38,045 nt of DNA from a virus (taxonomy: Duplodnaviria > Heunggongvirae > Uroviricota > Caudoviricetes): the IMG/VR virus record IMGVR_UViG_2534681663_000013, positions 1-38,045 of that record. One strand, 5' to 3'. Each line of letters begins with the position of its first letter. Within the stretch, counting starts at the first letter, position 1. Both the position numbers and the translations under genes were made by a program. Below are positions 5,195 through 28,375 of the stretch, one piece after another. A model generated the notes under the pieces. That model saw nothing but the letters and a program-made list of their open reading frames with translations. It was not told where the DNA came from and did not search any database.

Positions 5195-8100
5195 ATGAAG
5201 GCTCTGATGGTCAGAACTGACTTCTCCCTGGGAGAGTCGGCTCTAAAAGCAGAAAACGCGGTGAAAATCGCGAGAGACGCTGGCTACACCGCTGTCATTT
5301 CCGCTGACAGCATGAACATTGCCAGTGTGATCCCCCTGCAGCGTGCCGCTGGCGACGACATGGCGGGTATTTGTGGTGTTAAGCTGAATGTGGTCGACGA
5401 TCCGACATACGAGCACCGCGCCCGCCTTGCGAAAGAGTCAGGAGGATGTATGGAATCATTGGTGCGTGATCGAAGCTACTGCTTCACGGCACTGATAAAG
5501 AATGAGCAAGGTTATCGCGACGTGTGCGAACTGATGACCTTAGCCAACAAGCGCGAGCAATTCTACTTTGTTCCGCGTCTGGCACTTGACCAGCTGGCGG
5601 CCGCATATGCCAAAGGCAACATCATCCTGCTGACGTCCGACATTGGCAGTGTATTCCAGCGCCGGGACTTCGCAAAAATTATCGGGACGCTGGTCACAGC
5701 TGGCGGTCGCGATAACTTCTACAGCGTGGTTTATCCGCACCCTACCCCATTCTACGACCAGATTAACGTCCGGGCGATGAAAGTGGCGAGCGCACTGAAA
5801 ATAGAGCCAGTGGCGTTCTATCCCGCTTATTACGAAGCGATCGACGACGCTGACATTAAAGACATTGCGCACATGGTTACGAACAACATCAAAATCGACC
5901 AGCCGCATCGTCTGCGCATCCCCCACCAGCGAGATAACGCTGTTAATGGTCGTCGCCATCTCCTTGAAGCGCTGAAAGCCTTCTCCGTTCGCATGGGCGT
6001 ACCGGTAACAGCTGCAATGGCCTCAACAACGCAGGACACCATTATTGAAGCCTGCACATGGCGCTGGCATGAACTGCCACCAGCACTGCCCAAGATGGCA
6101 GACGACGAGCCTGCAACGCTGATGAAGCTGGCTGTCGCGGGGCTACGCAAGCGTCTAACTACTAAAGAGTTTGGCTACACACCACCGGCTTCTGAGCACC
6201 GAGTGTATGTTGAGCGACTGAAGTACGAAATGGACACACTGACCCGTCTGGGCTTCTGTGGCTACTTCCTGATGGTACGCGATCTGATGAATCACAGCCG
6301 TGAAACAGGAATACCGGTTGGGCCAGGGCGTGGTTCGTCAGCGGGTTCTCTGGTAGCGTGGTGCATAGGCATAACCAACGTCGATCCTATCCGTCACGGT
6401 CTTCTGTTTGAGCGTTTCATCAACCCTGAACGTCTTGACTTACCGGATGCGGATCTGGACTTCAGCCAGGCACGTCGTCATGAGGTGATCGAGTATCTGA
6501 ATGAACGCTATGGCGAAGATTACGTTGCCGGTATTCCAAACTTCACCTATCTGGGCGCCGCTTCTGCGCTGCGAGACACTGCGCGTATTTACGGTGTCGA
6601 CGCTGCGGATATGGCGGTATCCAAAGAGTTCAAGAATCTGGAAGACGATAGCCTGTCTCTGGAAGAGCTGCGCGAGCAACTGGCCAGCCTGGACAAATAC
6701 GCCACGAAAAACCCGGAAGCGTTCAAAGCGGCGTGTAAGCTGCAAAGCCTAATGCGTGGTTTTGGTCGTCACGCTGCGGGGATGATCGTCGCTGGCGTTC
6801 CATTGATAGAGCGCACGCCCGTCGAGCTGCGTGGCAACGCTCGCTGTATTGCGTTCGATAAACGTTACTGCGAGGCGATGGGGCTGATTAAGCTGGACGT
6901 TCTCGGTCTGGCAACGCTCGATCTGCTGGATAGCGCGAAACGCTACATCAAAGAGAGTACCGGGGAAGACATCAATCTCGATGCTATTCCACTGGACGAT
7001 CGTAAGGTTCTGGATGGGTTCGCTGCAGGGTACACGCAGGGCGTATTCCAGCTGGAGTCCGGCCCCATGCGCAAGCTGCTTAAAGATCTGGGCGGTGGCA
7101 TTGAGCCAATGAGCTTCAAAACCGTTGTCGCCACGACCGCACTCTTCCGACCTGGCCCGATTCAATCAGGCATGTTGGACGACTATGTCTCCGTGGCCAA
7201 AGGCTTCATGGCTCCACATTCAATTCATCCGCGTCTTGAGGAAGTCACCCGGGAGACTAATGGTGTTTTGCTCTATCAGGAACAAATCATGCAAAGTTCC
7301 CGAGTACTTGCCGGGTTCTCTATGGCCGAAGCAGACGCTCTGCGTTCCGCTATCGGTAAAAAGAACATGGATAAGATGAAAGCGATCGGCAGCGATTTTG
7401 TAGAACGAGCACAAGCAGGCTGTGTGACACTGTCACTCAAAAATAGAGGTACTGTAGAGGTTCACAAACACGCAAAACTGGATTGCTCAGACGGTAAGCG
7501 TAGAAGCTACAGCGAGGCTATTAGTGACGGCATAGACTACGTGGAGATCGTCTCTGAACAAGAAGGTCTCAGTAAGGAAAAAGCCCAAGAAATATGGGAC
7601 GCCTTTGAGAAGTTCGGTGGATATGCCTTCAACAAATCACACAGTGTTGCTTATTCTTTAATCAGCTATCAGTCTATGTGGTTAAAGACACATTACCCTG
7701 CTGAGTTCTTCGCTGCTGCGCTCACCATTCTGGGCGAGGATAAGCACCAGGGGCTGGGTAAGGATGCGCTGACCTATGGCATTCGCGTATTGCCACCAGA
7801 CGTTAACGTGTCATCTAACCGAATTGAGATCCGCACGCTGGAAGACGGCAGTCAGGTTCTGTATGCACCATTCTCTGCTGTGAAAGGCTGCTCTGAGAAT
7901 GGTTGTCAGGCCATCATGAGAGCGCGTGAGAAAGTTGGCGGCAAATTCGAGTCACTTGAGCAATTTGAGGAAGCGGTCGAGAAGCGTGCATGTAACAGCC
8001 GGGTACGCGAATCACTGCAAAAAGTAGGTGCGTTCGCATCGATTGAGTCTGGCAGTCTGCCAGCGACAGATCCGGAACGACTGCGCGACCAGGCAGAGTT

Positions 8101-25680: not shown

Positions 25681-26325
25681 ATGGATCTTAAACGCACGCG
25701 CTGGGTTCGCCGTCTTGAAGATGGCTCCTACACCATTGAATCAAACACTAGTCTGAACAAACAGAAGTTGCTCTGCGACCTTTGCGGCATTGCTTCGAAA
25801 TGCCCGATTAACGAAACCCGGCTTAAACTCCACGACGCCGGTGCGCATTTCCACCTAAACAGCTGCATACGTTACGTGCCACTACTAGCATTTCGTAAAC
25901 CGATCATCGGATTGGATGCTCCCTACTTCAACACACTGCGCTCTGGTGTCACTTGGCGAGATCGTGTCGAACCTGGCAAACTCGTTTGTCTGGTTGAAGC
26001 TGATACTGGAAATATCATCCGGTTCGGGAGAGTTGATAAGGTCTACTCAGGCCCGGTGGATGAAATACTGCGGAAACACAGCCGATTTAACCATCTCTGC
26101 ATGGGCGGAGAGAAGATTGAGAAGGTTGGCGAAGTAATTCGCAAATCTTACGGACACTTTCTGAATGATAACAGCCTTCTGACAGCCATTTACATTCGAC
26201 ATGTCGATCGGGAGTTCGACACGGAGTATCACAGTGCTGAAGAGTTGAATCTTGTAGACCCTCGTCCAAAAGCTGGGGTAATAGACATTAGCAGAGCGCG
26301 TCAGAAGCCCTCAGAGACGTTTTAA
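25681..26325 (+). CDS. Hypothetical protein (214 aa)
   Basis: Long ORF directly after the origin region. Weak resemblance of its central beta-rich segment to PUA/ASCH-like domains, not supported. Confidence 0.5.
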   Translation: MDLKRTRWVRRLEDGSYTIESNTSLNKQKLLCDLCGIASKCPINETRLKLHDAGAHFHLNSCIRYVPLLAFRKPIIGLDAPYFNTLRSGVTWRDRVEPGKLVCLVEADTGNIIRFGRVDKVYSGPVDEILRKHSRFNHLCMGGEKIEKVGEVIRKSYGHFLNDNSLLTAIYIRHVDREFDTEYHSAEELNLVDPRPKAGVIDISRARQKPSETF

Positions 26326-26721
26326 AGGCAAACTCATGCTTTTTACCGGGCATAAAATATGGTGTCTTAGAAAGACACTGAGAGCTTTAGGGATTAATGC
26401 ATGAGTGAATTTTATTCAAGAGCAGAAACTGTGGCCGACGGATGCGTTTGAAGACGACGCACGCAAACGCCGTAAATGTCATCTCACAACTTCACCGTCC
26501 GTTCTCCTTTTTCATTTCTTGTCATCAGTAAATGACTGCTCTCATAAAATTGCTTGTGACGTTTAGAAATCGTTGCTGCCCTACCTGATAGGTATTTACT
26601 TACTTATTTTTTTGTCATTATCATGTGCCTTTATATTCTTTTGTGTGCCGTGTTGTCTGGGTTGTACGCCTCTTATGCACGCTTAGAATTTGTATCAAAA
26701 TAACCACAAAGGAAAAGACAC

Positions 26722-27000
26722 ATGACATTGCCATACGGGGTAATATCAGATCCCCATTATCATCGTTGGGATGCTTTTGCGACAACAAACGCTGACGGGC
26801 TTAACTCTCGGCTGGAGATCCAACTGGACGCTACGAAGGAGGCGGCCAAAGCGATGAAAGCTGCTGGCTGTAAGCACATGCTGGTAGCTGGTGATACCTT
26901 CCATGTTCGCGGTGCTATATCACCTTCCGTTCTGCATTTCGTGACCGAAACTTACGAGTGGATCATCAAAGAGTTGGGTCTCAAGGTGGTAAGCTGGTGA
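26722..27000 (+). CDS. Hypothetical 92-aa ORF; may be the 5' part of a frameshifted gene continuing in 27035-27436
   Basis: RBS AAAGGAAAAGACAC-ATG. Motifs VISDPHYH and LVAGDTFHVRG. The downstream frame opens at 26993, 8 nt before this ORF stops. Confidence 0.4.
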   Translation: MTLPYGVISDPHYHRWDAFATTNADGLNSRLEIQLDATKEAAKAMKAAGCKHMLVAGDTFHVRGAISPSVLHFVTETYEWIIKELGLKVVSW

Positions 27001-27034
27001 TACGAAAAAGCAAGTTCGCGTTAACAGTGACGAT

Positions 27035-27436
27035 ATGCGGCGGTTGAACGAGATTTGGCGTGGTATTAAGCCACTGATTGACCAAGTTCATTTAGTGTTC
27101 TGTGAACTGCCAGTAGGCAGTCAATCTGCTAGAGCGATGGTTTCTTATGGTGGTTGTCTTGGCGTACTGGCGTGTGTGGATAAGCCACTGATACAGGTCA
27201 CGCCAAACGAGATTAAGTACTATGTCGGGAATAAGCTGACTACGTCGAAAGAAGAGATCATTCAGTGGGCTACGCAGAAGCAGCCAAACGCCCCGTGGTT
27301 GCGCCGGAAGCAATCGGGCAAGGAAGTGCTGGTGAATAAAAACGAGCACCTTGCGGACGCTGTCGCATCGATTTACACCGGTATGCAAACTGATCAATTC
27401 CGTCAGGTTCGCGATGTTCTTGCTGGAATTTTATAA
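27035..27436 (+). CDS. RuvC-like (RNase H-fold) resolvase-type protein, C-terminal two thirds; no start codon at the beginning of the open frame
   Basis: Aligns by eye to E. coli RuvC residues ~40-145 (KQVRVNSDDMRRLNEIW / VFCELP / HLADAVA matching VDDLPSRLKLIY / FAIEQV / DAADALA). Confidence 0.45.
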   Translation: MRRLNEIWRGIKPLIDQVHLVFCELPVGSQSARAMVSYGGCLGVLACVDKPLIQVTPNEIKYYVGNKLTTSKEEIIQWATQKQPNAPWLRRKQSGKEVLVNKNEHLADAVASIYTGMQTDQFRQVRDVLAGIL

Positions 27437-27474
27437 GTTGATAATTGATAGGTAAGTGCTTATCTATTACCATG

Positions 27475-27500
27475 AGACCACTATATATAGTGGTCTTTTT
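27475..27500 (+). terminator. Hairpin GACCACTATATATAGTGGTC followed by TTTTT
   Basis: Perfect palindromic stem followed by a T-run, downstream of the 27035-27436 ORF. Confidence 0.55.
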
Positions 27501-27674
27501 AATTGGGCTACACATAATAAGCATCGTAAAACGTAACGCCCACCGAGCCGCTGCCAGCTGCATGAAGCGCTGACAAAGTTCGCTGTCGATTGCACTGGCC
27601 CGAGCCAGTTCGAATACCAAACCCACCAGCAATCCCGTACCAACTTCAAAACCCCCGTAGTCGAGTTCAATCCC

Positions 27675-28130
27675 CAGCTCAAAACCGTAAAAGTATTCAG
27701 TGATGGCTCCTGCCTCAAAAATCCGGGCGGGCCGGGCGGTTACGGCATCGTTCTCCAGTATCGAGGCGAAGAGCGCGAGCTTTCTGAGGGCTTCCACAGC
27801 ACGACCAACAATCGGATGGAGATGATGGGCGCCCTGATTGCGCTGGAGCGTCTGAAGTACCCCTGCAACGTGATCCTGCATTCCGACAGCCAGTATCTTA
27901 AAAACGGCATGACGCTCTGGATGAAAGGCTGGAAGCGTAACGGATGGATCACGTCTGAGAAGAAGCCAGTCAAAAACGTGGATCTCTGGAAACGTCTCGA
28001 CGCGGCCGCCAGTCGTCATAATGTCCGCTGGAAGGGGGTTAAAGGCCATGCAGGTCATCGCGAGAACGAAATGTGTGACCGTCTGGCGAAGATCGCCGCC
28101 TATTGTCGAGCGAGTCTCCGCTTTTGTTAA
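27675..28130 (+). CDS. rnhA: RNase HI homologue; catalytic residues intact but no ATG/GTG/TTG at the expected start (CAG at 27675-27677)
   Basis: Translation [23 protein letters not shown]...[11 protein letters not shown]...ILHSDSQY...[13 protein letters not shown]...[17 protein letters not shown] aligns along the whole length of E. coli RNase HI. The frame is open from 27537, and the first canonical start is the ATG at 27816. Confidence 0.7.
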
Positions 28131-28375
28131 GTCCCCGCTGAATAATCCCCTCACCCGCGGTGAGCAGATGGAGCTGGCAAGGTGGTTTCTGCGTATCCAT
28201 GAGCAGATGGAAGTTTTTAAACAGTTGCCGGATCTGCCCATTACAGACGGCCAAATTCAGTGTGCCACTTCAGTACGGTCGACGATGACAACGACGCAAA
28301 CCTGCTTTTCGTCAAATCCGAAATCATAAAGTTGCGCAGGGAGAGAGAGAAATCGACGCAGAGCAGGCCCGCAAT

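Follow-up and report, generated by a model that had tools for sequence, protein, structure and literature searches.

A probable 4.6-kb deletion in an SSU5-type phage-plasmid leaves the front of an SbcD-like gene joined to the back of a RuvC-like gene

Introduction

Two reading frames lie against each other in a 38,045-nt stretch of viral DNA (IMG/VR record IMGVR_UViG_2534681663_000013, positions 1 to 38,045; hereafter the window), and the question is whether they are one broken gene, two genes, or something else. The upstream ORF (26722–27000, plus strand) ends at a TGA, while the next frame opens at 26993 and has its first start codon, an ATG, at 27035. These positions, given in the initial annotation, are confirmed in the sequence, and its arithmetic that a one-base correction would yield about 237 codons also holds. 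From these observations it had proposed a single frameshifted gene with a RuvC-like C-terminal part. Comparison with intact relatives points elsewhere: the two frames do not adjoin by chance, and 26993 is the exact breakpoint of a deletion. With a probability of roughly 0.9, we interpret the locus as a deletion scar that joins an SbcD-like front to a RuvC-like back in an SSU5-type phage-plasmid, that is, as ordinary gene decay.

Results

Source of the window and gene order in its relatives

The window locus shares 88–90% DNA identity with the Salmonella phage-plasmid SSU5, and the window matches many E. coli IncFIB(pHCM2-type) plasmids at 98.6–99.2% identity over about 21 kb; the similarity to both is extended and colinear. 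Among complete E. coli genomes, all 267 of the 267 matching places sit on plasmids, and the E. coli plasmid relatives are typed as IncFIB and non-mobilizable. Taken together, these matches identify the window as part of an SSU5/pHCM2-like phage-plasmid of E. coli type.

The genes around the locus follow the same order in SSU5, Klebsiella phage ST13-OXA48phi12.3, and the plasmids p.CT29-P1 and pNT1F34-108k, namely an SbcD-like gene, a small ORF, an SbcC-like gene, one or two hypothetical genes, and a RuvC-like gene. In annotated relatives, the SbcD-like metallophosphoesterase has 361 aa, the AAA/SbcC-like ATPase 638 aa, and the RuvC-like protein 189 aa, the last being labelled “RNase H-like”, “RuvC family”, or hypothetical. 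The block from SbcD to RuvC is generally conserved among the relatives. At megablast sensitivity, at least 80% of it is covered in 247 of the 478 matching plasmids, including those of Y. pestis and Salmonella, and most of the plasmids below this coverage simply carry divergent sequence; a few others have IS3 insertions or truncations in the block. Homologous blocks belong to the SbcD/SbcC module of SSU5 (SSU5_073, metallophosphoesterase; SSU5_075, exonuclease) and are found in pHCM2-type Salmonella and pMT1-type Yersinia pestis plasmids. The window and the SSU5-like module also have their upstream neighbor in common, a 214-aa hypothetical gene at 25681–26325.

Outside the locus, the annotation of relatives for the counterparts of window positions 1–25000 lists dnaE (DNA polymerase III alpha), type I restriction-modification genes, and a LAGLIDADG homing endonuclease. 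A group II intron (ltrA) splits the alignment of some relatives to this part into extra pieces. An Rfam scan of the whole window gave neither a group II intron nor any other RNA family, and an ARAGORN scan of the whole window gave no tRNA genes.

A 4,571-bp segment is missing at the junction of the two frames

We compared the locus with the intact copy of p.CT29-P1 (L003 in the coordinates below) by local BLAST and three-way alignments. The left part of the window locus is 99.4% identical to p.CT29-P1 up to L003 position 1431, which lies within the 361-aa SbcD-like CDS (1161–2246). From 26993 onward, the window is 100% identical to L003 6003–6446 and beyond, up to window position 27618, and codon 43 of the RuvC-like CDS (5877–6446) begins at L003 6003. 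The breakpoint is thus sharp, between 26992 and 26993. Its two sides match the intact relative almost perfectly, but at positions that are not neighbors there, and the 4,571 bp of p.CT29-P1 between them (L003 1432–6002) are absent. The missing segment covers the remainder of the SbcD-like gene, the gene for the SbcC-like ATPase, three hypothetical genes (the small ORF and two hypotheticals), and codons 1–42 of the RuvC-like gene. In its intact homologue, the deleted ATPase carries AAA_23, SMC_N, and SbcC_Walker_B domains.

The sequence common to both parents at the breakpoint is the dinucleotide AA at 26991–26992, which sits inside an imperfect AAtGCTGG/AAaGCTGG match, and the join is out of frame (+1). 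It leaves 271 nt of the SbcD-like CDS, i.e., 90 codons and one base, on the 5' side, after which the SbcD frame reads two new codons, Ser and Trp, and then TGA. The join itself also creates the TAA at 26990–26992, with the T contributed by a GTA codon and followed by AA. This junction-built TAA and the join at codon 43 therefore explain why the RuvC frame “opens” exactly at 26993 and lacks a start of its own. A plausible mechanism is an illegitimate recombination at the level of microhomology (2-bp AA) that would have removed the 4,571 bp, bringing codon 90 plus one base of the SbcD-like gene out of frame against codon 43 of the RuvC-like gene, and its expected outcome is two non-functional remnants, a 92-aa SbcD' ORF and a RuvC-like tail without a translation start.

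We also considered a 12-bp direct repeat, AGCTGGTGATAC (26888–26899 and 26992–27003), as a recombination substrate and rejected it: although it touches the junction, it is not the site of recombination. The repeat is a chance likeness between SbcD motif II (V-AGDT-F) and RuvC-like codons 43–46 (AGDT).

The upstream ORF retains the first 90 codons of an SbcD-like gene

The ORF at 26722–27000 (plus strand) runs from ATG to TGA and encodes 92 aa (MTLPYGVISDPHYH...VAGDTFHVRG...LGLKVVSW), of which the first 90 codons are native. In its DNA it shares 99.4% identity with the copies on E. coli plasmids and 88% with SSU5. It contains VISDPHYH and VAGDTFHVRG, and for the motifs SDPHYH and GDTFHVRG in them the initial annotation had left two options, an RNase H-fold beta1 strand or a phosphoesterase, and the second is borne out. 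The 92-aa remnant matches phrog_100 (“SbcD-like subunit”) with an E-value of 2.3e-24, and the intact homologue falls within the calcineurin-like metallophosphoesterase and SbcD-Mre11 profiles (Pfam PF00149 Metallophos, 37.9 bits versus a cut-off of 21.5; phrog_100, E 2.5e-95), while the remnant by itself has no Pfam hit. The other option fails, as the real beta1 strand, VAGLDPSLSNFG, is encoded in the 42 deleted codons of the RuvC-like gene.

Out of the complete metal-binding set of these enzymes (DxH, GDxxD/H, GNH[D/E], and later His motifs), the remnant holds motif I (DPH) and motif II (GDTFH) only. Motif III (GNHD, L003 codons 94–97) lies just past the breakpoint and was deleted with all that follows. 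Compared with the intact SSU5-like module, the window thus lacks everything from motif III onward and the whole SbcC-like partner. We regard SbcD' as a remnant because two metal-binding motifs are all that it has and its SbcC partner is gone.

The native start and the upstream region are kept, with an AGGA Shine-Dalgarno match 8 nt 5' of the ATG at 26722, and the ORF may still yield a 92-aa peptide. Two overlapping sigma-70-like promoter matches lie upstream on the plus strand (26595–26639; 9/12 each). These are weak consensus matches, and the four promoter-like sites found are not clearly above the 2.2 ± 1.9 expected from shuffled sequence.

The downstream frame is the 3' part of a RuvC-like gene

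The initial annotation had called the downstream frame RuvC-like, and profile and fold comparisons bear this out. The frame at 26993–27436 (plus strand) contains codons 43–189 and the stop (TAA, 27434–27436) of the RuvC-like gene, codons 1–42 being absent. It matches phrog_159 (“RuvC-like Holliday junction resolvase”) with an E-value of 2.7e-42 over profile positions 122–259, compared with 84–259 for the intact protein. Another profile, phrog_18320 (137 positions), aligns with no more than the last 137 residues, starting near residue 52 of the RuvC-like protein; in some cases the phage records behind it apparently had an internal start called or hold truncated copies.

Other sequence searches were weak or negative. 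Pfam RuvC (PF02075) matches neither the E. coli protein nor the window remnant, and it recognizes a single one of the 37 family members (E 8.1e-06). Against NCBIfam, RuvC scored 17.3 bits versus a cut-off of 163, with PdeM and SbcD also below threshold, and Pfam returned nothing useful for the two window remnants (TrbE at E 0.09, no other hits). Searching PDB sequences with the intact protein by phmmer gave noise only; the family profile gave one weak RuvC match (E 0.19) over the beta1 motif, in which VAGLDPSLSNFG aligns with MRVLGIDPGLANLGL of D. radiodurans RuvC. The intact protein was therefore modelled and compared at the level of fold. The AF2 model of the intact E. coli 189-aa protein, built with a 37-sequence alignment, has a mean pLDDT of 93.7 and a pTM of 0.90. 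In a Foldseek search of the PDB with this model, the top 12 matches are all bacterial RuvC (E down to 1.1e-09, TM up to 0.76), followed by a chloroplast resolvase, Lactococcus phage 67 RuvC, and poxvirus resolvases. By its predicted structure, the intact family is RuvC-like at the fold level. In the model, the 189-aa member shares the RuvC fold with phage RuvC-like resolvases (PHROG 159), bacterial RuvC (PDB 7xhj, 4ep4, 6lw3, 1hjr), and Lactococcus phage 67 RuvC (4ktw), while the family is too distant for the Pfam RuvC model.

Four residues, D11, E80, H161, and D164, are invariant in the 37-sequence alignment. The active-site residues of RuvC are well established, and by analogy, with the weak beta1 and E80 alignments, these four are the likely catalytic residues of the family. 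E80 presumably corresponds to E66 of E. coli RuvC, a weak alignment that we treat as a lead only (hhalign, E 0.047, probability 1%).

In the window copy, the lost codons 1–42 hold the predicted strands beta1–beta3 (residues 4–11, 16–25, and 31–40 in the AF2 model of the intact protein) and, by the family alignment, the invariant residues D11, N16, G18, and L38. The RuvC frame has no ATG, GTG, or TTG between 26993 and the ATG at 27035, and its longest start-bearing ORF (27035–27436, plus strand) runs from Met57 to the end and encodes 133 aa. Starting there would also drop the invariant K48, R51, N53, S54, and D56. Of the four-residue catalytic set (a beta1 Asp, a beta4 Glu, and a His/Asp and an Asp of the C-terminal helix), the 133-aa ORF keeps three, E80, H161, and D164, and lacks D11. 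No Shine-Dalgarno match precedes the ATG at 27035. By what is known of RNase H-fold nucleases, a product started at Met57 would be expected neither to form the five-stranded sheet nor to complete the active site. Compared with RuvC resolvases, the window copy, which lacks residues 1–42 and any start before Met57, is a remnant and not a resolvase gene. A terminator-like hairpin with a T-run at 27474–27497 (plus strand), the native 3' end of the RuvC-like gene, is kept inside the 100%-identical segment.

From the missing residues and strands, both ORFs are most likely non-functional remnants. It is very unlikely that one of them has acquired a new role, with the 133-aa RuvC-like product or the 92-aa SbcD' acting as a DNA-binding or dominant-negative factor, or that the two are linked by a +1 ribosomal frameshift at TGG-TGA. 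The intact translation start region of SbcD', the three catalytic-type residues and the terminator kept by the RuvC tail, and the persistence of the scar in three slightly diverged copies (described below) would all be in keeping with such a role, as would an SD-like AAGGTGGT located 4 nt 5' of TGG-TGA for the frameshift. However, the truncated RuvC-like product would, according to the model of the intact protein, lack three strands of the central sheet as well as D11, it has no ribosome-binding match at 27035, and the arrangement was born from the deletion and occurs in none of the relatives, which leaves no conservation to point to selection; the 5–8 SNPs among the copies are too few for a test of purifying selection. 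Programmed +1 frameshifting was rejected for the same lack of conservation, for the deletion-born arrangement, and for want of a slippery codon that allows re-pairing, since a tRNA-Trp paired with UGG is unable to pair again with GGU after a +1 shift.

Two further junctions follow within 1.2 kb

The RuvC-like tail and its terminator-like hairpin form a retained island between junctions, of which the window has three within 1.2 kb. At junction 2 (27618/27619), the p.CT29-P1-type identity ends and RNase HI-type sequence starts, with ATACC common to both parents. The sequence that follows (27619–28102, plus strand) is a 484-bp internal fragment of an RNase HI-like gene, with a G+C content of about 0.56, above that of its neighbors, and it comes closest to an RNase HI-like gene of Klebsiella phage vB_KpnS_p4727 (87% identity). 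Neither the start codon nor the 5' extension of the gene remains, and other sequence takes the place of its 3' end. The RNase HI-like frame stays open over 27619–28130 (plus strand), and it contains no ATG, GTG, or TTG before the ATG at 27816, which falls 3' of the FSDGSC motif.

At junction 3 (about 28103, within 28103–28105), the RNase HI-derived sequence meets a gene for a 79-aa protein (MNDLLVERVSAF...), whose first 4–5 codons are lost. A 102-aa ORF spans this point (28021–28329, plus strand), and its C-terminal ~75 aa correspond to the 79-aa hypothetical protein of pRHB27-C18_3. It opens at an ATG in the RNase HI-derived sequence, in another frame, the native start having been lost at junction 3, and its start is possibly chimeric.

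Relatives have far more DNA than the window between the RuvC-like gene and the junction 3 point, about 2.4 kb in pRHB27-C18_3 and, judged from match coordinates only, about 14.7 kb in NZ_CP110979.1. In p.CT29-P1, the genes directly 3' of the RuvC-like gene encode a phosphoribosyl-ATP pyrophosphohydrolase, a thymidylate synthase, a DHFR, a 3'-5' exonuclease, and others.

The junctions recur in other assemblies

An exact 36-mer across junction 1 matches the IMG/VR contig IMGVR_UViG_3300029577_000167, and a 27-mer across it matches the ENA contig ERZ772897 NODE_3231. Relative to the window, the former has 7 mismatches over 10,435 bp and the latter 8 over 12,452 bp, both without gaps, and between the two contigs there are 5 mismatches. 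All three junctions are identical in the three assemblies, so that the junction is reproduced in assembled contigs beyond a single assembly. The sightings comprise three metagenome assemblies, one with a contig of ~2.8x coverage as given in its name. None of the PLSDB plasmids, complete E. coli genomes, and GTDB species representatives carries junction 1, and scans of the GTDB species representatives for the exact junction likewise returned nothing.

Two finished E. coli plasmids have lost other parts of the same module. In pJH51-3 (CP095457.1), L003 1563–4632 (3,070 bp) is absent, with the left breakpoint at SbcD-like codon 134, and in the 52-kb pRHB27-C18_3 (CP057419.1), L003 1336–4763 (3,428 bp) is absent, with the left breakpoint at codon 58. 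Each of these deletions has a 2-bp TA microhomology, and they are independent events.

That three slightly different sequences share the same three junctions argues for a deletion passed down within a lineage in circulation, and speaks against both a sequencing error and a collapse during assembly. An assembly chimera, with the 4.6 kb dropped by the assembler although the actual molecule has it, would fit with junctions seen only in assemblies of uncertain provenance, one of them a low-coverage contig, and never in a finished isolate plasmid. We nevertheless consider it very unlikely, as separate assemblies 5–8 SNPs apart agree at every junction without gaps over 10–12 kb, assembler collapse needs repeats of k-mer length and the microhomology here is 2 bp only, and the analogous deletions in pJH51-3 and pRHB27-C18_3 show that such losses occur in real molecules. 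With the identical junction in two other independent assemblies, resequencing would not repair the locus.

The single ~237-aa gene of the initial annotation, broken by a real or erroneous one-base frameshift, accounts for frames that abut within 8 bp and for a downstream frame without a start before 27035, but we dismiss it as extremely improbable: its halves match no continuous homologous gene. In relatives they are separately annotated genes of 361 aa and 189 aa, each starting on its own, with four genes between them and, in p.CT29-P1, 4,571 bp; SSU5 and the Klebsiella phage have the same order. This is the very arrangement that the initial annotation had named as refuting its proposal. The halves also fall into different families, SbcD-like and RuvC-like, most listed homologues of the RuvC-like part are 183–204 aa long with none of ~237 aa among the 120 listed, and the junction is the same base for base in the two other assemblies.

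Discussion

The initial annotation was right that the locus is disrupted, and the disruption takes the form of a deletion. On the deletion-scar reading, it would be wrong to call either ORF a gene or to “repair” the pair as a frameshift, and we propose to annotate them as SbcD-like and RuvC-like gene remnants flanking a 4.6-kb deletion. Within the 38 kb of the element seen, the SSU5-like lineage found in three samples would have lost its SbcCD-like nuclease and its RuvC-like resolvase, and would thus be without this recombination module. The neighboring junctions also cost the lineage the block between the RuvC-like and DUF1311-type genes, where relatives have nucleotide-metabolism genes.

For P1-like phage-plasmids, gene loss has been described as a route to derivatives that are defective or live only as plasmids (Pfeifer and Rocha 2024, PMC10879196). 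Like the defective P1-like derivatives, the window carries several internal deletions in phage-type DNA-metabolism genes; unlike them, it belongs to the SSU5-like family and is known here from 38 kb of the element. The locus is an SSU5-family case of the same ordinary gene-loss process, an event of a well-known kind. It fits the known decay of phage-plasmids and adds one small data point on modules that are dispensable for plasmid maintenance.

In the window lineage, pJH51-3, and pRHB27-C18_3 alike, the deletion begins within the first 134 codons of the SbcD-like gene and has a 2-bp microhomology. One might suppose that SSU5-like phage-plasmids of E. coli lose the SbcCD-like module, here together with the RuvC-like gene, repeatedly and under selection, which we regard as unlikely on the three cases at hand. 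If true, module loss could mark a slide from phage-plasmid to plasmid-only life, or an escape from a nuclease-triggered cost or host response.

The surroundings of the module vary among relatives as well. pNT1F34-108k (NZ_CP075488.1) lacks the 258-aa hypothetical gene found at L003 5256–5816. In this plasmid, an inserted TnpB/InsQ RNA-guided endonuclease gene (1260–2468 of its locus) separates the 214-aa hypothetical gene from the SbcD-like gene, and SSU5 has an acetyltransferase gene and a hypothetical gene at the same spot; the intergenic spot 5' of the SbcD-like gene is therefore a variable site.
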